The notes under the pieces were generated by a model. It had not been told where the DNA came from. It saw only the letters and a program-made list of their open reading frames with translations, and searched no databases. A DNA stretch of 64,000 nt, taken from assembly GCA_965223325.1 (NCBI GenBank), contig CBDCWI010000002.1:1600001-1664000 (forward strand), read 5' to 3'. The DNA comes from Candidatus Multivoradales bacterium (GTDB lineage Bacteria > Acidobacteriota > Thermoanaerobaculia > Multivoradales > Multivoraceae). The position numbers were made by a program, and so were the translations under genes. Shown here piece by piece: positions 1-23,963 of this stretch (positions are counted from its first letter, which is position 1; each line of letters opens with the position of its first letter).

Positions 1-300
1 TACCCGTCCAGAGCGCTTGCGCGCCCGCAACAAGTCGAGGCCGGCGTTGATCGCCGCTCGGTGCAGGTAGCTGCCGGCTGTCGACCCGAGGTCGAAGGGT
101 TCAGCGCGCCGCGCCAGCCGCAGGAAGATCGTCTGCAGGACGTCTTCGGCATCAGAGGCGCTACCGGTGACCCGGTAGGCGACCCGATAGACCCGCTGAT
201 GATGCTCGTCAAACAACATTTTCAGATACTCCTCCGGGGCCAGGCCCGCTCCACTGCGGGATTGTTCCGGGGTTGGCTCGCTCATGGCTGCTGCACTCAC
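1..300 (-). CDS. ECF (sigma-70 family) RNA polymerase sigma factor, 5' part; runs off the window
   Basis: Not in the ORF track. Manual translation from GTG at 300: ...MLFDEHHQRVYRVAYRVTGSASDAEDVLQTIFLRL...YLHRAAINAGLDLLR (ECF region 2, DAEDxxQ motif). GAGGAG SD upstream. Confidence 0.85.
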   Translation of the reverse strand, partial: MSAAAMSEPTPEQSRSGAGLAPEEYLKMLFDEHHQRVYRVAYRVTGSASDAEDVLQTIFLRLARRAEPFDLGSTAGSYLHRAAINAGLDLLRARKRSGRV

Positions 301-387: not shown

Positions 388-1341
388 CTACCCAGGATCC
401 CCACCCGAGGCTCCTCGGGCATCGAAGGCAGCCTTGGCCAGGCTGCCGGAGAGAATCACCAGCCCGCCCAGCCAGGCGGTCACGCCAGGCGCCTCGCCCT
501 GGAACCACCACGCCCAGAGCGGCGCCATGACGGGCTCGAGAAGCAGCAGAACCGAGGCCTGAAGAGCCGTCACGGCTCGCATTCCGGTAACGACGAGAAC
601 GTAGCCCAGCCCCAGTTGCAGGGTCCCGAGGGCGGCAACCAGCAGCCAGTCGCCAGCCACGCCAGAGCTGAGAATCGCTAGCCCAGGCGTCGCCTCGCCG
701 GCGGCGGACGGGCCGAGCGGTGCTCCACGAAAGAAAGGCACACACATCGCGAAGGCAAACCCGTTGCCCCAGGCCAGAGCGGCAGCACCCTCCCCGGACC
801 GTGGGTCGTTGGTCGCCCAGGAGCGTTCGAGCGCGCGCAGGCCAAGCACGACCAGCGCGTAGCAAAGCCCACTTCCGGCGGCGATCCAGTTGCCGAGCAG
901 TGGGTGAGGCGCCGTCTCCTGGATCTGCGAAGCGGTAAACAACTGCGGCCCGACCAGAAGGATCAGAAGGCCGAACATCAGCCAGGCCACCACCCCCCAG
1001 TCTCGACGACGCACCGGTTCCGCCAACCACCAGGGCGAAAGAAGCGCCACCCACAGCGGCGTCGCGGTCTGCAGAAAAATGGCGCTCGCGGCCGTCGTCA
1101 GTTTGTTGGCGTGAACGAACCCGATGACCGTCAGGGCGTAGGCGAGAGCGACCGCCGCGGTCGCGAGGGTCAAGCGCCGCCGGGCTCGAGGCAGCAACAG
1201 AACGACCACCAGTCCAGAGAACACCGAGCGCAGACCGGCGGTCTCCCAGCCGGTGAAATCGGTACCTTTGATGAGGGCACCGCCGGTCGAGAACAGGAGT
1301 GCGCCAGCCGCCAGCGCGACGAACCCCAGCGACCGCTTCAG
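388..1341 (-). CDS. EamA/DMT family transporter
   Basis: Multi-TM protein with the motifs LFSTGGALIK, TAASAIFLQTATPLW and LLLLEPV. The frame extends upstream of the tracked GTG (1224) to a CTG at 1341 preceded by GGAGGA. Confidence 0.85.
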   Translation of the reverse strand: MKRSLGFVALAAGALLFSTGGALIKGTDFTGWETAGLRSVFSGLVVVLLLPRARRRLTLATAAVALAYALTVIGFVHANKLTTAASAIFLQTATPLWVALLSPWWLAEPVRRRDWGVVAWLMFGLLILLVGPQLFTASQIQETAPHPLLGNWIAAGSGLCYALVVLGLRALERSWATNDPRSGEGAAALAWGNGFAFAMCVPFFRGAPLGPSAAGEATPGLAILSSGVAGDWLLVAALGTLQLGLGYVLVVTGMRAVTALQASVLLLLEPVMAPLWAWWFQGEAPGVTAWLGGLVILSGSLAKAAFDARGASGGDPG

Positions 1342-1740: not shown

Positions 1741-3414
1741 TTACCTCGAAAGTGAGCCTTCCGCGCCTGCCTCTCGAACCTCACCCGACCTGGAGTTCTC
1801 ACCCCCAAGGGAAGAGCCAACCGCCAAGAGATCCAGCACCGGATGCCGATCGAGAACGACTGGGTGGTTGTCGCCGTCGAGCACAACCAATGGGTAGGGC
1901 GCGAAGCCCGGTGAGGAGAGGTCGACCTGGGGGTCGTAGACACTGGAGTCGTAGAGCTCGGCCAGACCCAAGAGCGTGTGCGATAGCGAGTCCTGGGTGA
2001 GGAGGGTACGGCGGTTCCTTCGGAGGTTGTCGAGATGCTGCGGCCGTGACTCGGCGAACGCCTGGTTGTAGAAAAACAATAGGGGGACGTGGAGTTCGAA
2101 GACCGACAGCCCATTGACCCCGTGGAAGAGGACTCCCTTGCGGAGATTGAAGAACTCCTCGCCGTGGTCGGGCATGAAGGTGACGGTCGCCACGCCAGGG
2201 CTTTCTAGAACCGTTTCGACAATCTGGCCCAGGACACGATCGCCGTAGCGCACCGAGTTGTCGTAGCGATCCTGGTAGGTGGCGGTGCCAAAGACAGCCT
2301 CGGTAGCGGGGTAACGCTCGTCGTAGCGCCAGTGGCTACCGTTGAGGTGTACGACGATGAACTTTTGCTCGGCCGGCTCTGCGAGAAACTCCGTCACCAC
2401 CGGCAGCAAGTCGAGATCGAAGCGCGCTATCCCTTCGTCCGGAAGTCGAATGGTCTTCTGTGCGTCTGCCAGTACCGCAGCCGGAAGGTAGTCCCAGAAT
2501 GTTTCGGACTCCTGGTTCGACGCCACGTAGGTCGAGAACCCCGCCTCCCTGAACACCTTCAGCACCGAGGGAAACTCGTAGTAGCGCTCGAAATCTGCCG
2601 CACCACCAAGCGACAGCATCGAAGGCACTGCCACCCGGGTCAGGCTGGCCACAGACAAGGCACTCTCGAAGACAATCTTCCGGTGCCACTGGTCGATCAA
2701 GGGCGTTGTGTCCCGCTCGTAACCATAGGCCGACAGAGCCGCAGCCCGCAACGACTCCCCGATCACCAGCACATGGGTCTCGGGCTGCTCCGAGGTCCGC
2801 TCGGGTCCCTCGTACTCGTACAGCTGAGCGCGGAACCGGCCGACCTTCCTGCTCTCCTCGAGGTAGTCGGCGTGGCGTACCACAAACGAGAAAGGATAGA
2901 AGTCCGACAGGCTCCGACCGCCATGCAGCACCAGGAGACTGGCCATGCAACCGACGACCGCCACCGCCAGCAGGCTCCGTTCTCTGAGCGTCAGAGCCCG
3001 CTCAGGTCGCACGCGGGCCATGAACCACACCAAGCCGCCTCCTAGAGCTGCAATGCACAATGCGGGCAAAAGCACGAAAGGCGAGCCCGCCAGCTCGAGC
3101 ACCTCACGCGGATTCGTTTCGTACAACGACGCAAAGACCTGAAAGTTAAGGTTGCGGCGGGTGACCACCATGAAGGCGACCAGGGCCAGGGAGAGCAGCT
3201 GAAAGGGCAGAAAGATCCACACCGGAGGGCGCAGGATGCGTCCCAGCGCCGCGATCGCGGTCACCAGCAAGAGGAAGATCAAGAATGCCCGCGGGCTCTG
3301 CCAGACGACAACCTCGGCGAGGCACGGCAAAAGGGCGATCGCCGCCATCAGGGCGTAGAGGCGAAAGCCGCCATCGATCGCCCGGCGCGCCTCGCGCGCC
3401 CATCGATCGATCAA
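1741..3414 (-). CDS. Phosphoethanolamine transferase (EptA/CptA-like, sulfatase fold)
   Basis: N-terminal TM helices, then VIGESLR, catalytic Thr (SLTRVAVP), HLNGSH, YDNSVRYGD and DHGE. The start is uncertain; TTG at 3414 was chosen over the tracked 3720. Confidence 0.85.
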   Translation of the reverse strand: MIDRWAREARRAIDGGFRLYALMAAIALLPCLAEVVVWQSPRAFLIFLLLVTAIAALGRILRPPVWIFLPFQLLSLALVAFMVVTRRNLNFQVFASLYETNPREVLELAGSPFVLLPALCIAALGGGLVWFMARVRPERALTLRERSLLAVAVVGCMASLLVLHGGRSLSDFYPFSFVVRHADYLEESRKVGRFRAQLYEYEGPERTSEQPETHVLVIGESLRAAALSAYGYERDTTPLIDQWHRKIVFESALSVASLTRVAVPSMLSLGGAADFERYYEFPSVLKVFREAGFSTYVASNQESETFWDYLPAAVLADAQKTIRLPDEGIARFDLDLLPVVTEFLAEPAEQKFIVVHLNGSHWRYDERYPATEAVFGTATYQDRYDNSVRYGDRVLGQIVETVLESPGVATVTFMPDHGEEFFNLRKGVLFHGVNGLSVFELHVPLLFFYNQAFAESRPQHLDNLRRNRRTLLTQDSLSHTLLGLAELYDSSVYDPQVDLSSPGFAPYPLVVLDGDNHPVVLDRHPVLDLLAVGSSLGGENSRSGEVREAGAEGSLSR

Positions 3415-3665: not shown

Positions 3666-5333
3666 ATGACCACTGAAACGACCGAGAGCTCGACCTCTTC
3701 GAGTACGGAAAAGCCCGCAAGCGGAGACACCGTCTCGTTCCGCATGGGCGCTGCGGTCGGTGCCCCTTACTCGGAGCAGTCGACGTTCCGGCGCGGCGCC
3801 GTCCTCCAGAATCGTTTCAAGATCCTGCGCTTCATCGCCAAAGGCGGAGCCGGCGAGGTCTACGAGGCCCACGATCTCGAGTTGCGCTGTCCCGTGGCGC
3901 TCAAGGTCTCGCGCCCCGAGATCTGCGACAACGAGAATGCCATTGAGCGCTTTCGGCGCGAGATTGCGCTCGCCCGCCAGGTGACGCATCCCAATGTCTG
4001 CCGCATCTTCGACGTCTTCCGCCAGGAGATTCCGTCGTCGCGGCCGGGAGGGTCGCCACGCGAGACGCTGTTTCTCACCATGGAGCTGCTCAACGGCGAG
4101 AGCCTGGCCTCACGCATCCACCGGTTGGGACCGATGGAGCGCGAAGAGGCCCTGCCGCTGATCGAGGGGATGATCGCAGGACTCAATGCGGCCCATCGGG
4201 TCGGCGTCATTCACCGCGACTTCAAATCGGCCAACGTCGTGCTGGTCGAAGAACTCGAAGGAACACGCGCCGTCATTACGGACTTCGGCCTCGCGCGCGG
4301 CCACATTCCAGACCCGGGCGCCGAAGACATCACCATGTCGGGAACCGTCGTCGGAACGCCCAACTACATGTCACCCGAACAGCTCACCGGCGGCGACATC
4401 ACTCCCCAGACCGATATGTACGCCCTGGGAATCGTGATCTACGAGATGATGACCGGCAAACGCCCGTTTACCGGCGAGACCGACCTGTCGACCGCCGTCA
4501 AGCGCCTGACCGAGGCACCGGCCTCACCCAGACTGCACGCGCCGAACCTCGAGTCGATCTGGGAAAACACCATCTTGCGATGCCTCGAGCGCGACCCCGA
4601 GGATCGCTTCCCCACTCTCTCGGACATTCCAAAGGCCCTCTCGGGACACTCTCAAGCCACTCAGGTGCCTTCCCTGCAACGCGAGAGCCGACGGCGCTTT
4701 GCCTGGATCGCCGCCATCGTCCTCCCGGTGGCCGCAGCCCTGCTTCTGCTCTTTTCGATTGCCCGCGGCGGCGAGGACGGAACGTCGTTCGGCCTCGGCG
4801 AAGTGGCGTCGGCGCGCGTGGCGCTGCTCGACCTGCGCAACCTGTCGGGTGCTCCGGAGGGCGCCTGGCTGACCACCGGGATTCCCGAGATGATCGCCGG
4901 CGAGCTGGCCACCTCCGGCGACCTCGAGTTGATTCCACCGGAGAACGTGCGCGCAACGGTTGAGACGATGGCGGTGCAAGCCGGAACAGGACTGGCGAGC
5001 GAGACCGTCGGCGCCCTGCGCGACGCTCTCGGCGCCGAGCTGCTCGTCGAAGGCGGCTTCGTCCGCCTACCCGACGGCAACCTGCGGGTGCAACTGCGCG
5101 TTCACGACCCCCAGGGAGCCATCCTGACCGTCACCGAGCAGGGCACCGAGGATCAGATTTTCGATGTCATCGCGAGGCTGGGAGAGCGCATTCGACGAGA
5201 GGCGTCTCCCCATGCTGGCCGTGCGCGGGGCGAACCGGCACGACCTCTGACTGCACCCGACGCGGCCACAGGCCTTCCCGCCGCTACGACTCCCCTGGAC
5301 AGTGCGGAAGAAACCGTAGCGAGCGACTCCTAG
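3666..5333 (+). CDS. Hanks-type Ser/Thr protein kinase with TM helix and TolB-N/FlgO-like extracytoplasmic domain
   Basis: IAKGGAGEVY, VALK, HRDFKSAN, DFGLA and GTPNYMSPEQ. TM segment FAWIAAIVLPVAAALLLLF, followed by VALLDLRNLSG...WLTTGIPEMI. Confidence 0.92.
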   Translation: MTTETTESSTSSSTEKPASGDTVSFRMGAAVGAPYSEQSTFRRGAVLQNRFKILRFIAKGGAGEVYEAHDLELRCPVALKVSRPEICDNENAIERFRREIALARQVTHPNVCRIFDVFRQEIPSSRPGGSPRETLFLTMELLNGESLASRIHRLGPMEREEALPLIEGMIAGLNAAHRVGVIHRDFKSANVVLVEELEGTRAVITDFGLARGHIPDPGAEDITMSGTVVGTPNYMSPEQLTGGDITPQTDMYALGIVIYEMMTGKRPFTGETDLSTAVKRLTEAPASPRLHAPNLESIWENTILRCLERDPEDRFPTLSDIPKALSGHSQATQVPSLQRESRRRFAWIAAIVLPVAAALLLLFSIARGGEDGTSFGLGEVASARVALLDLRNLSGAPEGAWLTTGIPEMIAGELATSGDLELIPPENVRATVETMAVQAGTGLASETVGALRDALGAELLVEGGFVRLPDGNLRVQLRVHDPQGAILTVTEQGTEDQIFDVIARLGERIRREASPHAGRARGEPARPLTAPDAATGLPAATTPLDSAEETVASDS

Positions 5334-6175
5334 AGGCGACCGGGGCGGCCACTGGAGGCGCGCCGGTTGGCCAGACGCTGCGACGCCAGCAGGATGAGCA
5401 GCAGGCCGAGGAGGGCCAGACCGGCCCCCGACAGGGTCGGAACCTGGATCGCCAGTTGCGAGGTCGTCACCCGAATCAACGCCGCCCGGTGACCGGTGAA
5501 GGTCGGCGCGGCGCTGTCGAGGGCGTTGCCCCAGGTGAAGAAGAGATCTTCGCGCAAGAACAGCGGGATCTCGGGAGTCGTAGGTGTCCAGTCCGCACAC
5601 ACGAAGAAGAAGTCCTCGGCCGAAGGATCCCAGCGCACTCCGATATAGACCGGATCGGTCGCCAACGGGACACTGTCGACGGGCACTTCGTAGAAGGCGC
5701 CCGTGATCCCGGAGGGAACGCCGGTAGCAGAGGCGGCTCGAGAGTAGTAGGGCTGTTCTGCCGGCTTACCTCCGACGTCGGCATAGAACACCAGCTCGAA
5801 GTCGATCTCCTGGTCCGCACGGGTTCGCAGCCAACAAACACAAACCGAGTCGACTCCAGTACGGGGCGCGCCGGAGAACTCCTGCACGTACTCACCCTGG
5901 ACGACGCTCGGAACCCAGCCGTAGCCGTTCTCGACCGTGCCGTCGTCGTTGACGATGCCATCGTCACAAGCGGCGACCGGGGTGAACGATCCGCGCCCCG
6001 GTTCACTGGCGCGAGCAGCGCGCTCCCCGCCCTCTGCCGCCGCGGGCATGACCGAGACCACCATCAGACACATGAGCGAGGCGACGAGGTGGCGTGCTTG
6101 GCACGGGCTGGCAGCCGAAGGAAGGGTCAAAGGTCCGGACTCCGATACTTGAATGAGCTTGATAGAGAGGACCAT
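5330..6175 (-). CDS. Secreted protein with IPTL-CTERM-like sorting signal
   Basis: Signal-like segment (LMCLMVVSVMPAAA). C-terminus QVPTLSGAGLALLGLLLILLASQRLANRR (motif, TM, basic tail). Start uncertain. Confidence 0.75.
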   Translation of the reverse strand: MVLSIKLIQVSESGPLTLPSAASPCQARHLVASLMCLMVVSVMPAAAEGGERAARASEPGRGSFTPVAACDDGIVNDDGTVENGYGWVPSVVQGEYVQEFSGAPRTGVDSVCVCWLRTRADQEIDFELVFYADVGGKPAEQPYYSRAASATGVPSGITGAFYEVPVDSVPLATDPVYIGVRWDPSAEDFFFVCADWTPTTPEIPLFLREDLFFTWGNALDSAAPTFTGHRAALIRVTTSQLAIQVPTLSGAGLALLGLLLILLASQRLANRRASSGRPGRL

Positions 6176-9062: not shown

Positions 9063-9852
9063 CGAGCAGCTCCCGCAGGCGCGCCCCGGGGTCCGAGGCC
9101 GTGACCAGCGATTCACCGATGAGAAAGGCATCGAAACCACCGGCTGCGAGGCGCTCGACGTCGGCGCGCGAAAGGATGCCGCTCTCGGCCACCTTGAGTG
9201 CCGACCCTGGAACCCGTGGCGCGAGCTCCAGGGAGTGCTCGAGGTTGACGTCGAAGGTACGGAGGTCACGGTTGTTGATGCCCACCAGCTCGAGCTCGAG
9301 GCCGGCGATCATCTCGAGGTCGCTCGGCTCGTGAGTCTCGACGAGCGGAACGATGTTGCGCGCGCGTGTCTCGGCGACCAGCCGCTCCAACTCGGCGCGC
9401 TCATAGAGCGCCGCGATCAACAGGAGCGCCGATGCGCCAGCCTCCGCGGCCTCGTCGAGTTGCCGGTCGCCGACGACAAAGTCCTTGGCGATCGTCGGCA
9501 GCCCCGAAGCCTCCTGGCAACGGCGAAGCAAGTCGTATGAGCCAAAGAAGAAGTCGGGCTCGACCACCACCGAGAGCGCCGCGGCACCGTTTTGGGCGTA
9601 AGTCTCGGCCTGCTCCTCCGGAACGTAGCGCCCGGTGAGATCGCCAAGTCGTGGCGAGCCCAGTTTGACCTCGGCAATCACTGCGTTGCCGGCTCGTGCC
9701 CTGAGCGCACGCGTGAAAGCGGTCTCGATGAGGCCCGCTGCGGCGGCGGCCTCGGTTCGACCATCACCGGCTCCAACACCCTCGTAACGACGCCGACGCG
9801 CCGCGACGATCTCGAGCAGGATCTCTGCCACCTTGGGCTCGCTCCTGGTCAC
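9055..9852 (-). CDS. trpC: Indole-3-glycerol phosphate synthase
   Basis: VIAEVKLGSP, KDFVV, GINNRDLRTF, VAESGI and LIGESL. Confidence 0.96.
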   Translation of the reverse strand: MTRSEPKVAEILLEIVAARRRRYEGVGAGDGRTEAAAAAGLIETAFTRALRARAGNAVIAEVKLGSPRLGDLTGRYVPEEQAETYAQNGAAALSVVVEPDFFFGSYDLLRRCQEASGLPTIAKDFVVGDRQLDEAAEAGASALLLIAALYERAELERLVAETRARNIVPLVETHEPSDLEMIAGLELELVGINNRDLRTFDVNLEHSLELAPRVPGSALKVAESGILSRADVERLAAGGFDAFLIGESLVTASDPGARLRELLGE

Positions 9853-10855
9853 GACGAAAAACTCCGCAGGGCCTCGAGCTTTTCTGCCGCCGCTCCGCTC
9901 GCGAGGGCCTCCCGTGCCGCTTCGAAGCCCTCCTCGAGACTCGACGCGACACCGCCCGCCCACAGGGCCGCTGCCGCATTGACGGCGACGACACTCTGGA
10001 GGCGCTCCTCACCACCGGCAAGCAGGCTCTCCATACTGCGAGCATTCTCTTCGGCCGACCCACCAGTCAGTGCGGCGAGCGGCTGTTCTTCGATGCCGAA
10101 GCGCGATGGATCCCAGCGCGTTGTCTGCACCGTGCCGTCTTCGACCACTGCTGCGACCGTCGTGCCGGTCGTCGTGATCTCGTCGAGCCCCTCTCCGTGC
10201 ACCACCAAGGCGCGCTCGGCACCCAGCTGCGCGAGAACCTCGGCAATCGGTTCGACCAGCTCTTCGGCCCACACGCCAATCACCTGCCGCCGGGCACCGG
10301 CCGGGTTGGTGAGCGGACCGAGCAGGTTGAAGATCGTGCGGACCCCGAGGGCGCGACGTACTGGCATGACCTCACGCATTGCCGGATGGAGTCGGGGCGC
10401 GAACAGGAACGCGATGCCGACTTCTTCGAGACAACGAGCGGCTACCTGCGGCTCGAGTTCGAGGCTTACGCCAAGCTCTTCGAGAACGTCGGCGCTCCCC
10501 GAGCGACTCGAAACCGACCGGTTGCCGTGTTTGGCGACCGTCGCACCTGCAGCCGCAGCAACCAGCGCAGCGGCCGTCGAGATGTTGAATGTGCCCGTGC
10601 CGTCGCCACCGGTGCCACAGGTGTCGACGACCTGCGGGAGGGCGTGTGGAATCGGCACCAGACGCGCGCGCATCGCCTGCACCGCACCGACGATCTCGCC
10701 CGGCGACTCTCGCTTGGCGGCCAGCGCAACGAGCAGCGCCGCCTTCTCGATTTCTTCGAGCTCACCGTCCATCAAACGCCCGAACAACGCACGCACTTCG
10801 GCGGTCAGAAGATCTTCGCCGGCGATCAAGCGCTCGAGGGCGGCTCTGGTCTCCA

Positions 10856-10856
<1 letters not shown>
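9849..10856 (-). CDS. trpD: Anthranilate phosphoribosyltransferase
   Basis: DTCGTGGDG, NISTAAA, KHGNRSVSSRSGSAD and RTIFNLLGPLTNP. The real start is METRAAL at 10856. Confidence 0.97.
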
Positions 10857-11500
<644 letters not shown>

Positions 11501-11509
11501 CGGTGGTCC

Positions 11510-12988
11510 TCAGGCGTCTCGATCTTCGATTGCCGCGGCAAGTGCCAGCGCGGCCAGAAGCGCCGCCGCCTTGTCGCGGGTTTCCTGGGCCTCGGTCAGA
11601 GGATCGCTCTCGGCAACGATCCCCGCGCCGGCGGTAACCGAAGTCGAGTGACCGGCCTGCACCAGGGTGCGAATGGCGATGCAGGTGTCCATATCCCCGC
11701 CCCATGAAAGGTAACCGATGGCGCCACCGTAGGGGCCACGGGCCTCGGGCTCGAGCTCGTCGATAATCTCCATCGCGCGGATCTTGGGAGCGCCCGAGAG
11801 GGTGCCTGCCGGAAAGCACGCCAGCAGAACGTCGAGCGCACTTTGATCGGGCGCCAGGTCGGCGACGACGCTCGAGACGATGTGCATGACGTGCGAGTAG
11901 TGCTCGACCTCCATGAAACTCGCCACCCGCACGCCACCGGGAACCGCGACACGCCCGAGATCGTTGCGCGCCAGGTCGACCAGCATGACGTGCTCGGCGC
12001 ATTCCTTGGGATCTTGAAGGAGCTCCTCAGCCAGAGCCCGATCCTCATCGGCGTTCTGGCCGCGCCGGCGGGTTCCGGCAATCGGTCGCATCTCGGCCTT
12101 GCCAGCAATCGAGCGCACCAGCATCTCAGGAGAGGCCCCAACCAGGGTGAGAGCAGGGTTCTCGAGCAGCACCATGTAGGGACTCGGATTCACCACCCGC
12201 AGGGCGCGATAGAGCAACAGCGGGTCGACTCGCCTCTCCACTTCAAACCGTCGCGCCGGAACCACCTGGAAGATGTCGCCCGCGCGAATGTATTCACGCG
12301 CGGTTTGGACGGCTTCTCCGTAGGCCTCATCTGAGAGCCCGGGAGGAAGCGTCACCGCCGGCGTTGGTTGCTCGGCCGGCAGCGGCACGGCACCACCTTG
12401 GCTCTGCGTAGTCAGGACCTCGGCGAGCCGATCGAGCCCACGGCGGGCGTGCTCGGCGCTCTGCTCGCCGTCGATTTCGTTGGCGATACAGACGACACGC
12501 TGCAGGGCGTGGTCGAAGACCACCACATCGTCGTACCGCGCCAGGGTAGCGATCGGGAGGCCCCACGGATCGGGCGGCCGATCTGGCAGGTGCTCAATGA
12601 GGCGCGAGAGGTCCCACCCGAAGTTGCCCACCAGCCCACCGGCAAAGGGCAAGCCCTCAATGTCGTCGCGCTCCTGTTGAACTCCCTCGCAAACCGCACG
12701 CAGGGCCGCCAGCGGTGCTCCCGGAAGGGTTTCGGATTCCCCGCTCGGGGTGCTCCGTTCGAGGCGATCGGGCCACAGACGGTAGGTCTCGGCCGGCCCG
12801 CTGCCCATGAACGAGAAACGGGAGACCTGTTCTCCCCCGGTCACGCTCTCGAACAGAAAGCCATGCGCGCCCAAGGCGCGCAGGCGGCGGTAGACCTCGA
12901 GAGGAGTCAAGGTATCGGCGAGAAACTCCCGGCGATGGGGCCGGGCCCGTTTGACCTCTGAGGTGCTCGGCGTGCCAGGCTTGTTCAT
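11510..12988 (-). CDS. trpE: Anthranilate synthase component I
   Basis: [39 protein letters not shown] and [11 protein letters not shown]. Confidence 0.96.
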
Positions 12989-14538
12989 GACAGATCTTCC
13001 GACGGCGAACCGGCGGTCGGCAGCCGATGACGGCGTGCAAGCTCACCGGCAACCTCGTCTGGTGAAACGTCGAGCGCTTCGAGGAGCACCATCAGGTGGT
13101 AGCAGAGATCAGCTGCCTCACCGACGAACTCTTCGCGTCCCGAAGCCGCATCGGGCGCTGTGTTTCGCGAGGCGTCGAAGCGTAGGCCAGCAATGATCAC
13201 CTCGGTGGCTTCTTCACCGACCTTCTGGGCAATGCGGTCGACACCCGCCGCCAACAACCGGGAGCTGTACGAAGACTCAGGGGCCGCCTCGCGGCGCGCC
13301 TTGACAACCGCCGCCAACCAACCCAGCTCGAGGCGAGTGGACTCCTCGTCACCGAAGCAGGTGCGGGTACCGAGATGGCATGCCGGGCCGGCGGGTTCGG
13401 CCGTGAGAAGCAAGGTGTCGGCATCGCAGTCAAACCGCAAGTCGACGACTCGCAGAACGTTTCCCGAGGTCTCGCCCTTCTGCCAGAGGCGCTCGCGGCT
13501 GCGGCTGTAAAAGCACGCCAGCCCGGAGTCGAGGGTCTGGGCGACTGCTTCCTGGTTTGCCCACGCAACCATCAGAACCGCCCCGGTCGAGCGGTCTTGA
13601 CAGACCACCGGCACCAGACCGTTGGCGTCGTAGCGGAGGGCTGCGGGGTCGAGGCTCATCTTCGTCATCGTGACCTGTCGCTCATGCGGAGCGCCCTTCC
13701 TGTGTTGCTTCTTCGTGGGAGCAAGCGCCGACGCCGCGCCGTCACCGGCAGCGAGACGCATGGGGAACTCGCCAGCCAGCTGCTCTTTGACCTCGCCCAC
13801 GGTGTACGTTCCGTGATGGAAGATCGAGGCCGCCAGGACCGCGCTGGCGCCCGCACGGAGACCCTCGGCGAGGTGTTCGACCGTGCCAACCCCGCCGGAG
13901 GCGATCACCGGCACCCGCACCGTGGAGGTGACCGCCTCGAGTAGCTCGAGGTCGTAGCCGTGCTGCATGCCGTCAGAGTCGATCGAGGTCAACAGAATCT
14001 CGCCGGCACCGAGAGACACCCCACGCTCGATCCACTCGATCGCATCGAGACCGGTGGCGGTGCGCCCACCGTGGGTTACGACCTCCCAACCCGAGGCGTC
14101 TGGCCGCCGGGCCGCATCGACCGACAGCACCATGCACTGACTGCCGAAGTGCTCCGCGATCTCAGAAAGCAACTCGGGCCGGTTGACGGCTGCGGTGTTG
14201 GTGGCCACCTTGTCGGCACCGGCGAGCAGGAGCTGGCGGGCGTCATCGAGAACCCGCACCCCGCCGCCAACAGTCAGAGGAATGAAGACCTGTCGCGCGG
14301 TTCGGCGAACCCACTCGAGATCCGTGTCGCGCTTCTCCGGGGCGGCCGTGATGTCGAGAAAGACGATCTCGTCGGCTCCCTGGTCGGCGTAGCGCATAGC
14401 CGATTCCGCCGGGTCGCCGAGATCGGTGAGGTTCTTGAAACGCACTCCTTTCACTACCCGACCGGCGCGCACGTCCAGGCAGGGAATGATGCGAAAGGCC
14501 AGCTCGGAGCCCTTCGGAGGATCGTCGAGAAAACTCAT
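12985..14538 (-). CDS. hisF-hisIE: Fused HisF (IGP synthase cyclase) + HisI/HisE (PR-AMP cyclohydrolase / PR-ATP pyrophosphatase)
   Basis: [14 protein letters not shown] and [11 protein letters not shown] (HisF), a ~35-aa linker, then [10 protein letters not shown] and DCDADTL...GPACH (HisI) and QKVGEEATE and EAADLCYHL (HisE), all in one frame. Confidence 0.9.
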
Positions 14539-19903: not shown

Positions 19904-20904
19904 CAGCGCCGCCGTCCGGAGGCCAGCAGTCGATCGACACCGAGTGAAAACCCGATCGCCGGCGTGACACCGCTCTCCATCGGGGCAAGACTCGAGAACA
20001 AAGAGTCGTAGCGACCCCCCTGGCCAAACGGTACGGCAGAGTCGCCGGGGTAGGCGCGAAAGACGATGCCGTCATAGTAGGTGTAGCGCCGGTCGACGAT
20101 TCCGAGTGCGGAGTCGAGAGTGTTGGAGGCGTACTCTGCCAGGTCAACACTGAGACGCAGGCCGCCGCCAGAGAAATCTTCTCCCAACCGGTGCGCCAAG
20201 CCGATGAGCCGCTCGACCCTCGGCGCGCTGTCACCCAGGGCTTCGAGATCGTTGGGCGCCCCCTGTTCGAGGACTTCGAGAAGTACCGGGTGAGCGCGCT
20301 TCACCGCCGCCCGATCACGACGCGCCAGGGCGCCTGCGAGATCAGCCGAAGAGCTCCCAGAAGGCGGCACCGCAAGCAACCCGTCGAGCGCCCCCGCCAC
20401 CCCGAGGACCACCTGGGCCCCATCGCCGCTGGCGACGAGCAGTTCCAGAAAGAGCCGCAGCATGCGCTCGTCATCACTCGCCTCCCCCTCCGGGCCCTGA
20501 GGACTCTCGCGACCCACGAGCTCGGCACCGACTTCGTAGTACTCCCTGAGTCGCCCGGGACGCGGAAGCTCGTGCCGGATGACGTCGCCTCGGTAGAACA
20601 CCTCGATCGGCAGCTCGAAGTTGCACAGCCGCGGCGCGAGCAGTCGGGCGATCATGGCGGTGAAGTCGGAACGCAGGCCGAGCAACTGACCGTCTCGATC
20701 GACGAACCGATACGACGCCTGGCGAACGCGGTCGGCCAGCAGATCCTTGTAGGGCTCCCAGTAGTCGAGCACCGGGAGCAGGATCTCGCCAAAACCAGCC
20801 GCCTCGAGGCGCCCCACCAGACGTTGCTCGAGCGCGCGGCGACGTGCGGCCTCCTCGAACAGGAGCGCCGTCACGCCAGCGGGAAGATCGGTGCGGATTC
20901 TCAT
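19903..20904 (-). CDS. hisZ: ATP phosphoribosyltransferase regulatory subunit
   Basis: LPAGV, LRSDFT, REYYEVGAEL, YYDGIVF, GGRYDSL and PAIGFSL (HisRS-like, without the anticodon domain). Confidence 0.93.
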   Translation of the reverse strand: MRIRTDLPAGVTALLFEEAARRRALEQRLVGRLEAAGFGEILLPVLDYWEPYKDLLADRVRQASYRFVDRDGQLLGLRSDFTAMIARLLAPRLCNFELPIEVFYRGDVIRHELPRPGRLREYYEVGAELVGRESPQGPEGEASDDERMLRLFLELLVASGDGAQVVLGVAGALDGLLAVPPSGSSSADLAGALARRDRAAVKRAHPVLLEVLEQGAPNDLEALGDSAPRVERLIGLAHRLGEDFSGGGLRLSVDLAEYASNTLDSALGIVDRRYTYYDGIVFRAYPGDSAVPFGQGGRYDSLFSSLAPMESGVTPAIGFSLGVDRLLASGRRR

Positions 20905-22481
20905 TGCAGAGCGGCTCCCGGGCGCTTGGCTACGCCGGCGACCGTCTTGCCAGCCAGGAGCTCGGCGGCTATTTCCATCGGCAGGGCTTCACCGGTCATC
21001 AGGCGGAACTGGGTGGCTGCCTGATGGAGTAGCACGTCGCGCCCCGTGATCACCGGACCGAAGGCGCGCGCCTGTTCTTCGAGCGCCGTCGGTTCCTTGC
21101 CGTAGACCATCTCGACCACCGCCGTACCCTCTTTCTGTTGGTTCACCCGCCAGGGTGTCTCGGCGGAGCCGCCGCTTCCAACCGACGTCGCGTTGACCAG
21201 GATCTCGAAACGCGACGGGTCGAAGTCCGCAAGCGCGATGAATGGCACGCCAAGAAGCGTCGCCAACTGCTCGCCTCGCTCCTGGCTGCGGTTCACCACC
21301 ACCAGCTCGGCACCCTGAGCGGCGAGACCAGCCGCGGCGGCACGTCCGGCGCCGCCGCACCCGACGACCGCTGCTCGCCGACCGGCAGGCACAACGCCAG
21401 CGGCGGCCAATCCCCCAAGCACCCCCTCGGGATCGGTTGATTCGGCCTCCCACACCCGCCCGCGGCGATCACAGCCGCTGCGCACGAGGGTATTGGCTGA
21501 ATCGATTCTCTGCGCCAGTGGGCTGGACGCTCCAGCGATCGCGAGAGCCGCTCTCTTGTGCGGCGCGGTGACCGATAGCCCACGCAAGATGGAGGCCTCT
21601 TCGGCACCGCTCCAGAAGTCGCTCTCGACCACCTCGAGCCAGAAGTGGCCGAACTCGGCGGCTTCGAACGGCAGGTAGAGACCAGGCAGCCCGAGCGCCC
21701 GATAGGCACCGTTGTGGAGCCGCGGCGACAGCGAGTGACTGACCGGCGAGCCTACGATGCCGCAAGCCCAGTCGAACTTGGGCAGGTACGGGAAGCCGAA
21801 GTCTGAAACCAGCGCCGAAAGCGCCAGTTGGCCAGGAGCTGCCGGCTGATCTCCGAACGCTGCGAACATCACCGGTGCACCCAGGGTGGGTGCCACGACG
21901 CGAGTCCAGCTCGCGACTGCGCCGGTGGCAAAGGCCAGCACGTCTTGGCGACCGAGTTTTCTGAGCAGCTCGAGGGCCGGCAACTCATGGCCGCTGCGCG
22001 TGGCGCTGGGAATCAGCTTGTAGAGCGCCGCCGGCACCGAGTCCATGGCGCGGAGGCGCTCGTTGAGACCCTCGGCCGTGTCATGTGTACCAGGCGCCGC
22101 ATGCCACGACAGCACCCGGCGCTCGGCCGGAACGGCCGCCAGGACATCGGCGCTCAGATCGCGCTCGGCCTCGAGGTCGACGGCATCGAACTGATCGGCG
22201 GCCTGTTTGAGAAAGAGCGCACGCTCCTCCGCTGAGCGTTCGCAGGCACCACCCTCGGCGCGCGATCGCAGGGTGAAGAGAAGCGGCGACCCGGTGCGCG
22301 CACGCAGCCACTCGACATCGACAGACCCGAGGAGGTCAGCGCGCACCTCGATCCATGGCACGACGCCCGCCGCACCAAACTCGGGCATCTCGAGAGCGGC
22401 AGGCAACGCCTCTTCCAGTGCCGTCAGGCTGGCGATCACCGAGATTCGCCCTTCCGGGTGCGTTTTGTCGTTCAGAATCAA
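20901..22481 (-). CDS. aroDE: Bifunctional type I 3-dehydroquinate dehydratase / shikimate dehydrogenase
   Basis: AroD: EVRADL, FTLRSRAEGG, LSWH, LYKL and APGQL. AroE: GSPVSHSLSPRLHN, SVTAPHK, GCGGAGRA and NATSVG. Confidence 0.92.
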   Translation of the reverse strand: MILNDKTHPEGRISVIASLTALEEALPAALEMPEFGAAGVVPWIEVRADLLGSVDVEWLRARTGSPLLFTLRSRAEGGACERSAEERALFLKQAADQFDAVDLEAERDLSADVLAAVPAERRVLSWHAAPGTHDTAEGLNERLRAMDSVPAALYKLIPSATRSGHELPALELLRKLGRQDVLAFATGAVASWTRVVAPTLGAPVMFAAFGDQPAAPGQLALSALVSDFGFPYLPKFDWACGIVGSPVSHSLSPRLHNGAYRALGLPGLYLPFEAAEFGHFWLEVVESDFWSGAEEASILRGLSVTAPHKRAALAIAGASSPLAQRIDSANTLVRSGCDRRGRVWEAESTDPEGVLGGLAAAGVVPAGRRAAVVGCGGAGRAAAAGLAAQGAELVVVNRSQERGEQLATLLGVPFIALADFDPSRFEILVNATSVGSGGSAETPWRVNQQKEGTAVVEMVYGKEPTALEEQARAFGPVITGRDVLLHQAATQFRLMTGEALPMEIAAELLAGKTVAGVAKRPGAALQ

Positions 22482-22511
22482 GAAAGCCTCCGTCCGGTCA
22501 GGGAGGAGGCT
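22475..22511 (-). terminator. Attenuator terminator hairpin that also contains the aroDE SD
   Basis: Minus strand AGCCTCC-TCC-ctgacc-GGA-C-GGAGGCT followed by TTCTTGATTCT. GGAGG in the 3' arm lies 5 nt before the aroDE TTG. Confidence 0.8.
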
Positions 22512-22571
22512 CTACCGCCGTTGGCTGAACGCTCGACCCGGACCGCGAGTGGACCGGGACGAAGCCCAGTC

Positions 22572-22676
22572 TCACCCTTCAGTATGCACGTGCCACCAAC
22601 CCGAATAGAGCGCCGAGCGCTCGCCGGAGGGCGCGATCCCAAAGGTACGAACTTCGCTAAAGGTGGTTGTAGTCAT
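22572..22676 (-). CDS. Putative attenuation leader peptide (34 aa) MTTTTFSEVRTFGIAPSGERSALYSGWWHVHTEG
   Basis: ATG at 22676 to TGA at 22572. TAT-TCG-GGT-TGG-TGG-CAC-GTG-CAT lies near the 3' end. It sits between the promoter and the terminator at the head of the aro-his-trp operon. Confidence 0.8.
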   Translation of the reverse strand: MTTTTFSEVRTFGIAPSGERSALYSGWWHVHTEG

Positions 22677-22714
22677 CGTCAGGGTCCCGCGCTCTTTCTG
22701 GCTTCGGGGCAGTG

Positions 22715-22743
22715 ATTACAGCAATCCGGCCAAAACCTGTCAA
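22715..22743 (-). promoter_or_regulatory. Sigma-70 promoter of the leader/aro-his-trp operon
   Basis: TTGACA-17 nt-TGTAAT with an extended TGn. Confidence 0.7.
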
Positions 22744-22865
22744 GCGAGCCTCCTCCAACCGTCGCCGCCCAGAGTCCGACGCGGGCTCGCCCAGTCAACT
22801 GGAACGGGGTACTAGACTGCGGTCCGCCCCAGCTTTCGACCTTCCTCCAACACCCCCGCCGATCC

Positions 22866-23963
22866 ATGCTCAAGAAGCTCGTCCTCCTCGTCGCCTCCAC
22901 CCTGTTCTCGGTCGTTTTGATCGAAGTCGGGGTGCGCGGGTGGTTCTGGTCGAAAGGCATCGGCCGCACCGACGTCCGTGACATTCTCCAGCGCTCGCAG
23001 GGCGACGGCCCGGTACAGCTGGAGGGCGGCAGCGGTCTCTTCGGGATCATTCAGGCGAGCGAGCACGACGACATCGTCTACCAACTCAAACCGCACCTCG
23101 AGGGCGTCTTCAAGGGCGCGCCGGTCGAGATCAACCCCGATGGATTCCGCGGCCCCCAGGTGTCGCTCGAGAAACCCGAGGGGGTGCGGCGCATCGTCGG
23201 CATCGGTGACTCACACATGTTCGGCTGGGGTGTCGGCAACGACGAGACCTATCTCTCCGTTCTCGAGTCGCGACTCAATCGAGAAGACCCCGGAAAGCGC
23301 AAGTGGCAGGTGCTCAACTTCGCCGTCCCCGGCTACAACACCAAGATGGAGGTCGCAACCTTCGAGAAACGAGCGCTGGCCTACGACCCTGACCTGGTGA
23401 TCATTCACTTCATCGGCAATGACTTCGCTCCGCCTCACTTTCTCGACACCAAACGTTCGATCGCTCCCAGCCAGTGGTACTCGGTCGAACTGCTGCGCGG
23501 ACTGCTCTTGGAACCCGAAGAAGACACCGCGATCGCCTTTGACCCCGACACCAACGGCGGCGACACCGACCCGGGCGAGGCAGACGCTCCGCTGCCGGGA
23601 AGTCGTCAGTGGTACGAAAAAGACTTTGGCGGCCGCGAGGTTTTCGTTGCGGCCATGGACCGACTCGCTGGCTTGTCTCGCGAACACGATGTTCCGGTCA
23701 TCACTTTGATCCTCGGCAGCCACGGCCAGGTGCGTCAGTTCGTGCTCGAGACTGCGCGCGAGCGTGGCTTCTATACCCTCGACGCTGCCGAGCACTGGTG
23801 GCGTGCGATTGACGCGATGGGACTCGAACGCACCCAACAGAACTGGAAAGAGCAGCTTGGGCGAGGGGTCGAACGCCACCCCAAAGCCGCCGGACACGCC
23901 GCCTACAGTGACGCTCTTTTCGACGCCGTCGTGGAGGTCTTGCCGCCGCCGGCTGCTCCCTAG
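22866..23963 (+). CDS. Membrane-anchored SGNH/GDSL hydrolase family protein
   Basis: N-terminal TM, INPDGFRG, GIGDSHMFGWGV, NFAVPGYNT, IGND and HPKAAGH. Confidence 0.88.
   Translation: MLKKLVLLVASTLFSVVLIEVGVRGWFWSKGIGRTDVRDILQRSQGDGPVQLEGGSGLFGIIQASEHDDIVYQLKPHLEGVFKGAPVEINPDGFRGPQVSLEKPEGVRRIVGIGDSHMFGWGVGNDETYLSVLESRLNREDPGKRKWQVLNFAVPGYNTKMEVATFEKRALAYDPDLVIIHFIGNDFAPPHFLDTKRSIAPSQWYSVELLRGLLLEPEEDTAIAFDPDTNGGDTDPGEADAPLPGSRQWYEKDFGGREVFVAAMDRLAGLSREHDVPVITLILGSHGQVRQFVLETARERGFYTLDAAEHWWRAIDAMGLERTQQNWKEQLGRGVERHPKAAGHAAYSDALFDAVVEVLPPPAAP

Follow-up and report, generated by a model that had tools for sequence, protein, structure and literature searches.

In the enterobacterial his leader (hisL of Salmonella and E. 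coli), clustered His codons in a short leader open reading frame (ORF) are followed by a register-shifting chain of RNA segments (A:B, C:D, and E:F versus B:C and D:E) and an intrinsic terminator, and the position of the ribosome selects the register. In the E. coli trp leader (trpL), two adjacent Trp codons lie near the leader peptide's end; a ribosome that reaches the stop codon leads to the terminator, and one that stalls leads to the antiterminator. Other leaders, such as thrL (Thr and Ile) and ilvL/ivbL (Leu, Val, and Ile), mix codons, and a shortage of any one of the amino acids concerned relieves attenuation. To our knowledge, most documented cases of leader-peptide attenuation come from Proteobacteria, Actinobacteria, and certain Firmicutes, with inputs that almost always belong to a single pathway. 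Here we describe the leader of a merged aro-his-trp operon in a 64,000-nt stretch of an acidobacterial genome (Candidatus Multivoradales bacterium, contig CBDCWI010000002.1, positions 1,600,001 to 1,664,000; hereafter the window), which we consider, with a probability of about 0.8, to be a conserved ribosome-mediated attenuator with two inputs, Trp and His. The first-pass annotation of the window, made from the sequence by itself, had proposed that one leader reads both amino acids for the merged operon by termination and/or occlusion of the Shine-Dalgarno (SD) sequence, and the comparative evidence given below supports that proposal.

Naville and Gautheret (2010, PMC2965389) describe leader peptides as known at that time only from Proteobacteria and Actinobacteria, to which they add hisS/hisZ leaders of Firmicutes; further His-only leaders of Firmicutes come from Ashniev et al. 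(2022, PMC9413887). As described there, the Firmicutes leaders resemble the one studied here in having 3-5 His codons followed by a terminator/antiterminator, in occurring outside Proteobacteria, and in having come from comparative genomics; they differ from it in being His-only, in belonging to other phyla, and in using other RNA scaffolds. In the literature searched, namely the main text of openly accessible papers, we found neither this motif nor a leader combining Trp and His codons, and an earlier account elsewhere is possible; the same body of text yielded no attenuator with an assigned function in Acidobacteria.

The element is read on the minus strand of the window, and all positions below refer to that strand unless stated otherwise. 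The leader ORF (22676-22572) has 34 codons followed by TGA (22574-22572) and encodes the predicted peptide MTTTTFSEVRTFGIAPSGERSALYSGWWHVHTEG; it is recognized from the sequence and from short-ORF homologues in relatives. Its C-terminal end, WWHVHTEG, is encoded by TGG TGG (W27 and W28, 22598-22593), CAC (H29, 22592-22590), GTG, CAT (H31, 22586-22584), and three further codons, i.e., the predicted translation clusters codons for the very amino acids made by the operon, as is expected of an attenuator. Directly abutting the stop codon is segment A (GACUGGG, 22571-22565), which can pair with segment B (CGUCCCGGUC, i.e., (CG)UCCCGGUC, 22561-22552) to give a first hairpin, in DNA letters GACTGGG (22571-22565) and CCCGGTC (22558-22552) around a six-base loop. 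Segment B has a second possible partner in segment C (GGUCCGGGUCGAGCG, 22545-22530), and C in turn can pair with the 5' arm and loop of the next hairpin, which would make it the antiterminator strand. That next hairpin consists of arm D (AGCCUCCUCC, 22511-22502; AGCCTCCTCC in DNA letters), the loop CUGACC, and arm E (GGACGGAGGCU, 22495-22485; GGACGGAGGCT in DNA letters), and is predicted to act as a terminator and to sequester the SD, given that the GGAGG of aroDE (22491-22487) lies inside arm E. It is followed by the sequence TTTCTTGATT, with a U-rich tail (UUCUUGAUU, 22476-22484) that overlaps the TTG start codon of aroDE (22481-22479). The GC hairpin together with the U-rich tail constitutes a predicted intrinsic terminator, placed, as an attenuator requires, after the leader ORF and ahead of the first gene. 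The promoter, the 34-aa ORF, the first hairpin, and the GC-rich hairpin with GGAGG and U-rich tail had all been called in the first-pass annotation, correctly in both position and sequence; both hairpins of its two-hairpin picture stand, and what it overlooked is segment C, which links them into a five-segment relay.

The relay that we propose would work as follows. Transcription would start about 30 nt before the leader ORF, whose last eight codons hold two Trp and two His codons. With both tRNAs charged, the ribosome would reach the stop codon and cover A, leaving B to pair with C and D to pair with E, upon which transcription would terminate and any mRNA that read through would have its SD hidden. 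With either Trp-tRNA or His-tRNA scarce, the ribosome would stall 4 to 12 codons before the stop and leave A free; A:B would then form first, C would pair with D, the terminator would be blocked, the SD would be exposed, and the whole aroDE-his-trp operon would be expressed. We infer the stalling, the kinetic or co-transcriptional order of folding, the actual termination, and the logic by which either shortage suffices; this last follows from the geometry, in that a stall at either class of codon leaves A free, and therefore either shortage should open the operon. As to distances, A begins right where the stop codon ends, and 4 codons separate the end of the main His cluster from that stop; with the footprint of a ribosome, a stall 4 codons before the stop is about the closest that leaves A free, while a ribosome on the stop covers it. 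For the relay in this detail, and for termination as opposed to purely translational control, our confidence is lower than for the two-input reading, at somewhat better than even.

By analogy, the switch logic is closest to that of the enterobacterial his leader, with which it shares a short ORF rich in His codons, more than four segments, and a register that would be selected by the ribosome's position. The two nevertheless show no sequence or covariance-model similarity, and hisL differs in that here 2-4 His codons are combined with Trp codons, the first switching segment comes after the stop codon and so outside the coding sequence, the terminator also masks the first gene's SD, and the host is an acidobacterium. 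The adjacent Trp codons near the leader's end and the rule that the stop gives the terminator and a stall the antiterminator recall trpL, which, unlike this leader, has four segments with the first of them in the coding region, responds to one amino acid, and has no SD occlusion; again, there is no homology. The mixing of codons, by which any shortage would relieve attenuation, is shared with thrL and ilvL/ivbL, but those leaders serve one branched pathway family, whereas here the separate His and Trp pathways are merged in one operon and the codon mix changes when that operon is split.

A protein search with aroDE was made in 41 genomes from the same order, and 40 of them, spread over 12 families, gave homologues at 43-58% identity. 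Just upstream of aroDE, 22 of the 30 loci fetched have a short ORF with a tail rich in Trp and His, and a 23rd (L020) has a Trp-only tail. The tails GLWWPWAHHHVWI, HGWWWHGVHHFGS, RVWWRPVHHHVHD, and TSWWAHGHGKG are examples, while the N-termini vary in length and sequence and are unalignable among relatives. A DNA alignment of the 23 leaders gives an identical order of elements throughout, namely TGGTGG, CAY, CAY, the stop codon, GCCGGG (A), GTCCCGGCC (B), CCGGGACGAG (C), a spacer of about 25 nt, CCTCCTTCCGG (D), a loop, and CCGGAAGGAGG (E), typically followed by TTTTCGTTTTGG with the start codon. A covariance model of the leader (R1), searched in the 41 related genomes, matched 37 of them and found a single copy in the window's genome. 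The leader ORF is present in 36 of these 37 (the match in G040 is partial and lacks it), and in 33 of the 36 the last 14 codons include one or more for Trp and two or more for His. Under stricter filters, R1 matched four of 151 genomes across the phylum, all four in the window's class, and none of about 139 genomes from other classes of Acidobacteriota; within this sampling, the element is confined to the class Thermoanaerobaculia.

An exact RNA pattern was also built from segments B, C, and D only; the peptide is excluded from it, and it therefore provides an independent test of leader-ORF conservation. The pattern occurs at no fewer than 118 public loci, nearly all titled Thermoanaerobaculia, Acidobacteriota, Holophagales, or Candidatus Multivorans. 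Among the matches listed, seven look like chance, including two from Streptomyces and one from Planctomycetaceae; 111 of the 118 have a short ORF whose end lies 7-19 nt ahead of B, and 101 of those 111 ORFs have at least one Trp and at least two His codons in the last 14. One genome of genus g11 (G011) has a second copy of the leader with the tail AQAWWAHGHGKG (L186, G011:C1:387300-387950), preceding a second aroDE copy (G011:C1:387843-389249) that is interrupted by TAG and TAA stop codons; this second leader and aroDE are a decaying duplication of the operon head.

Codon statistics were taken over the last 14 leader codons of 102 unique tails, with the proteins of the window's operon as reference. 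His makes up 21.0% of the tails versus 1.97% of the operon proteins, and Trp 13.2% versus 0.91%. Counted back from the stop, Trp is concentrated at codons 12 to 8 and His at codons 8 to 4, with codon 4 as the closest position to the stop that is well populated by His, and the His positions vary synonymously (CAT 183, CAC 137). The Trp and His codons are thus kept while the rest of the peptide is not, a pattern indicating that selection acts on the W/H codons and not on the leader peptide. The conserved C-terminal motif might be taken for that of a functional His/Trp-rich micropeptide. However, the N-terminal two thirds are free to vary in both sequence and length, the residues that are conserved differ according to which genes follow, and nothing in the sequence points to a folded or secreted peptide, which leaves that explanation next to no probability. 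A sensing of Tyr or Phe, which the first-pass annotation had floated as a possibility, was rejected, as Phe (0.5% of tails, 3.06% of operon proteins) and Tyr (0.7% and 1.84%) both fall below their operon-protein shares. The leader tails are also relatively richer in CAT than the window's operon genes (20 CAT, 56 CAC), in a comparison that mixes genomes and is only suggestive; such an excess may reflect a preference for a wobble-read codon at sensing positions or a constraint on the RNA sequence.

The relation between codon content and gene content was read from the positions of hisD and trpA in the 41 genomes, the gene maps of the fetched regions, and the leader peptides. Among the matches listed, his genes lie downstream at 72 pattern loci with 61 unique tails, of which 60 have at least two His codons, and trpE directly follows aroDE at 6 pattern loci with 5 unique tails, of which four have at most one (RRRWWAYAQPYV, GWRSPAPIDAY, CWRRHVQRRAS, and CWRSSGQGHALS). 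A sister of the last of these, CWRSSAHHHAH, is found in 7 loci, five with his genes downstream and two too short to tell. Two genomes illustrate the loss of His codons: G029 (96% complete) has an aroDE-trp operon behind the leader AWCWWSMAMNRGAR, which has no His codon, and the leader of G192 (L088) has none either. The his-only operons have lost the other class. In G025 (hisZ-hisG-hisD, with trp on another contig) the leader ends in ARHHHHHHA, and in G036 (hisZGDC, with hisF-trp elsewhere) it ends in DLVHHHKMT, neither with a Trp codon; the trp genes of these two genomes, a separate operon in G025 and hisF-trpE in G036, showed no Trp leader in front of them. G188 has two copies of the same scaffold, one with GRGHVHHHSMI before hisZ and a Trp-only one about 200 nt before trpE, the latter with the leader MRYNSIPRRRSGAVPAWRWWGRILTP (ending in AWRWWGRILTP) followed by recognizable A, B, C, D, and E and a U-tract. 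In G191, a leader with WW and no His precedes aroDE-trp, and the his genes stand behind a His leader of their own (LHHRHAH), which has a separate terminator. The position of the element follows the genes as well: it lies between aroDE and hisZ in G031, and directly before hisZ in G034 and G036, where aroDE is elsewhere.

In all, His codons are lost in G029, G192, L042, and L054/L073/L147, and Trp codons in G025, G036, and L094; related genomes are not independent of one another, but as judged by tail sequence and genome the His-codon losses represent at least four distinct leader lineages. On these predicted peptides, the codon classes appear tied to the genes controlled, as multivalent attenuators require, with three exceptions (G032, L098, and G021) that are weighed below. 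The conservation of the W and H codons in relatives, a check suggested by the first-pass annotation, came out in its favor, as did the comparison of codons with genes, with His codons mostly gone where his genes are absent and Trp codons gone in his-only operons.

Searches for hisD, hisB (IGPD), and hisG gave no match in G029, G028, G039, G192, and G189, three of which are rated 96-100% complete; these five are likely natural histidine auxotrophs that keep an aroDE-trp operon. Separately, His-only leaders on a different RNA scaffold were seen at L187 (G032:C3, ~2618-2780, minus strand) and L199 (G191:C9, upstream of hisG). Each of these leaders has its own terminator, the his operons behind them have a hisG only 27-34% identical to the window's, and these operons may have been acquired together with their own attenuator.

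The pairing that the relay needs was examined on the 23-sequence alignment by pair counts, with a shuffle control that ignores kinship. For the terminated state (B:C with D:E), 83.7% of cells are paired, 10 of 17 pairs are changed on both sides, none of 500 shuffles reaches this value, and slid controls give 36-68%; for the alternative (A:B with C:D), the corresponding figures are 77.3%, 10 of 20, 2 of 500, and 40-61%. In the consensus, segment C (CCGGGACGAGAG) is similar to arm E (CCGGAAGGAGGG), which is why C can pair with D, and C:D alone is paired in 76.8% of cells with 5 of 12 pairs changed on both sides and one position mismatched in all 23 sequences. This C:D pairing supplies the antiterminator fold, mutually exclusive with the terminator and involving its 5' arm, that this class of attenuator requires. 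In the window, the hairpin energies are -10.8 (A:B), -17.2 (B:C), and -17.1 kcal/mol (D:E), and the C x D duplex comes to -17.3 kcal/mol.

Sequence conservation in B, C, and D goes beyond what pairing alone requires, which could favor a switch that binds a ligand or a protein (a riboswitch, or a T-box-like or TRAP-like device), with the ORF as a by-product. Rfam returned no match at the gathering score in the whole window, and at E up to 10 the region 22300-22950 gave only two weak, unrelated plus-strand matches; no match to a T-box model (specifier loop, T-box sequence) was among them, nor to His_leader or Trp_leader, which we take to be the names of the corresponding Rfam leader families. 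A binding switch would also leave unexplained why the stop codon always lies just before A and why the W/H content follows the gene content, and we regard it as extremely improbable.

Ribosome-masked minimum free energy (MFE) models were run on the 23 leaders with transcripts ended at the end of D. A:B with C:D formed in 14 of 23 with a stall at the first Trp codon and in 12 of 23 with a stall at the last His codon, and a ribosome placed on the stop gave B:C in 17 of 23. In the window, stalling at W27 leads to A:B with C:D before E is made, and stalling at H29 leads to an antiterminated MFE structure of the full transcript. As modeled, the thermodynamics allow the switch but fall short of proof; of the mutually exclusive folds for which the first-pass annotation had called, both are conserved in pairing across the 23 sequences, and the switch between them appears in the MFE models only in part.

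A number of these and other results count against a two-input attenuator or against the relay as we draw it. The segments are highly conserved, the covariation is modest, and related sequences can beat shuffles without any structure. RNAalifold on a MAFFT alignment recovers B:C only, D:E being missed because its 3' arm is misaligned. The switch is absent from 9 of 23 MFE models with the Trp stall and from 11 of 23 with the stall at the last His codon, and when the ribosome sits on the stop, 6 of 23 do not form B:C and 6 of 23 nevertheless form C:D; for the window with the ribosome so placed, the outcome depends on the mask, a +13 mask giving the terminator and a +15 mask the antiterminated fold. 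The relay as drawn predicts read-through when there is no ribosome at all, which is not predicted for E. coli trp. The window itself has no strong SD before the leader ORF, its U-tract is interrupted (UUUCUUGAUU), and its 243-nt leader has an MFE no better than that of shuffles (z = -1.02; 32 of 200 as good). Taken alone the window is thus unremarkable, and the case for more than chance rests on the comparison with relatives. Among those relatives, some that share the gene order lack a leader before aroDE, examples being G028 and G039, which have aroDE-trp and no his genes and show no leader of any kind; G032 has retained W R S H V H L H in front of aroDE-trp although its his genes, which include a distant hisG (27% identity), are located elsewhere behind a His leader of their own, HLHHLHHGH; L098 keeps HHH although its genome, G189, gives no hisD, hisB, or hisG match; and G021 has a single His codon, one His having changed to Tyr.

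Leaders such as those of G032 and L098, with His codons retained and no his genes following, would be expected if the leader sensed only one of the two amino acids, Trp or His, and the codons for the other were incidental or a relic; the many leaders with a single Trp codon (19 of the 61 unique tails with his genes downstream, among the matches listed) could be read in the same way. Both codon classes are, however, strongly enriched and positionally conserved, and each has been lost in several separate lineages as its pathway genes left the operon. A single sensor is accordingly very improbable in our view.

The tail of the D:E hairpin bears on a different alternative, in which the same relay operates but D:E works by sequestering the SD of aroDE, with little or no termination. 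In all 23 aligned relatives, a GGAG lies in the 3' arm of the homologous hairpin, GGAGG in the window, and the start codon is in or just after the tail. The interrupted U-tract of the window fits this alternative, as do six of the 23 leaders, four of genus g11 (with the tail UCUUCCCGUUUG) along with L021 and L024, that fail a test for a hairpin followed by at least five T in eight nucleotides. The other 17 pass that test, and in most relatives a canonical tail such as UUUUCGUUUUGG comes right after a GC stem of 9-12 bp. Moreover, occlusion of the aroDE SD alone would not obviously control the 14 downstream genes, and in G188, where about 200 nt separate the trp scaffold from trpE, the hairpin is too far away to mask the trpE SD. 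Both modes could operate together; control by translation only is unlikely, and we continue to prefer an attenuator that terminates transcription in response to Trp and His.

Upstream of the leader ORF lies a candidate sigma-70-type promoter, with TTGACA at 22743-22738, a 17-nt spacer, and TGTAAT at 22720-22715; a TGC at 22723-21, directly 5' of TGTAAT, closes the spacer, and the leader ATG at 22676 is about 38 nt beyond the -10 hexamer. A scan of the window for consensus promoters and terminators called neither this promoter, because position 2 of the -10 hexamer is G, nor the bulged terminator. The same arrangement recurs in relatives: TTGACN-16..18-TNTANT was found in 38 of 121 unique regions upstream of related leaders (shuffle mean 0.015), with TGTAAT in 17, TCTAAT in 15, and TG at -15/-14 in 29 of them. 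The leaderless relatives L009 and L012 have this type of promoter directly before aroDE. The recurrence of the motif supports its assignment as the candidate promoter of the operon.

The operon itself comprises 15 contiguous or overlapping ORFs (22481-6266, minus strand), assigned from the ORF listing and Pfam in the order aroDE, hisZ, hisG, hisD, hisC, hisB, hisH, hisA, a hisF-hisIE fusion, trpE, trpG/D, trpC, trpF, trpB, and trpA. Two of its members are composite: the hisF-hisIE fusion (12985-14538) has His_biosynth, PRA-CH, and PRA-PH domains in 517 aa, and the long ORF at 9849-12002 contains trpD with an N-terminal extension that overlaps trpE, and is presumably trpG-trpD. The ORF directly after trpA (5330-6175) bears an IPTL-CTERM sorting motif and is unrelated to the function of the operon, and on the other side a divergent GDSL-lipase gene begins at 22866 on the plus strand. 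The first gene, aroDE (20901-22481), is a fused type I dehydroquinase/shikimate dehydrogenase. In the window's genome (G000, 98.2% complete), it is the sole match to Shikimate_dh_N, and no type II dehydroquinase was found there. It follows that the making of Phe and Tyr, too, must rely on read-through of the proposed Trp/His attenuator, and no Phe/Tyr leader was seen upstream of the genome's two chorismate-mutase genes, raising the physiological question of how the supply of Phe and Tyr is kept up with the only aroDE behind such a leader.

A weak match to R1 (32 bits) was noted in another genome, downstream of trpA (L197, G122:C27, ~1124-1275, minus strand). Its leader ORF, MNRTFAPNWFYYGYYT, has four Tyr, two Phe, and one Trp and is followed by a GC hairpin with a U-tract, after which come a 98-aa chorismate mutase (CM_2) and DAHP synthase; judged by its sequence, this related scaffold looks like the same attenuator chassis in a form for aromatic amino acids.

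These results carry leader-peptide attenuation into Acidobacteriota, one of the major phyla of soil and a poorly studied one, and describe a single leader that integrates two unrelated amino acids because their genes have been fused into one operon. They also provide an unusually clean evolutionary record, with codons that follow genes and a duplicated scaffold specialized into Trp-only and His-only forms, and this record serves as natural evidence for the regulatory codons as the sensor. For annotation, a covariance model of the motif would mark his/trp regulation in hundreds of metagenome-assembled genomes, and the loss of His codons from the leader flags likely histidine auxotrophs. A broader reading, to which we give slightly less than an even chance in its entirety, is that the relay is a reprogrammable chassis across Thermoanaerobaculia in which evolution changes only the regulatory codons of the leader to match the downstream genes. 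In that joint reading, the chassis would exist in Trp+His, Trp-only, and His-only versions and, in one genome, in a Tyr/Phe-rich version before chorismate mutase and DAHP synthase; it would be duplicated when the operon splits; and it would place the sole detectable dehydroquinase/shikimate dehydrogenase gene under Trp and His control. If this reading is true, histidine would exert cross-pathway control over the supply of aromatic precursors.

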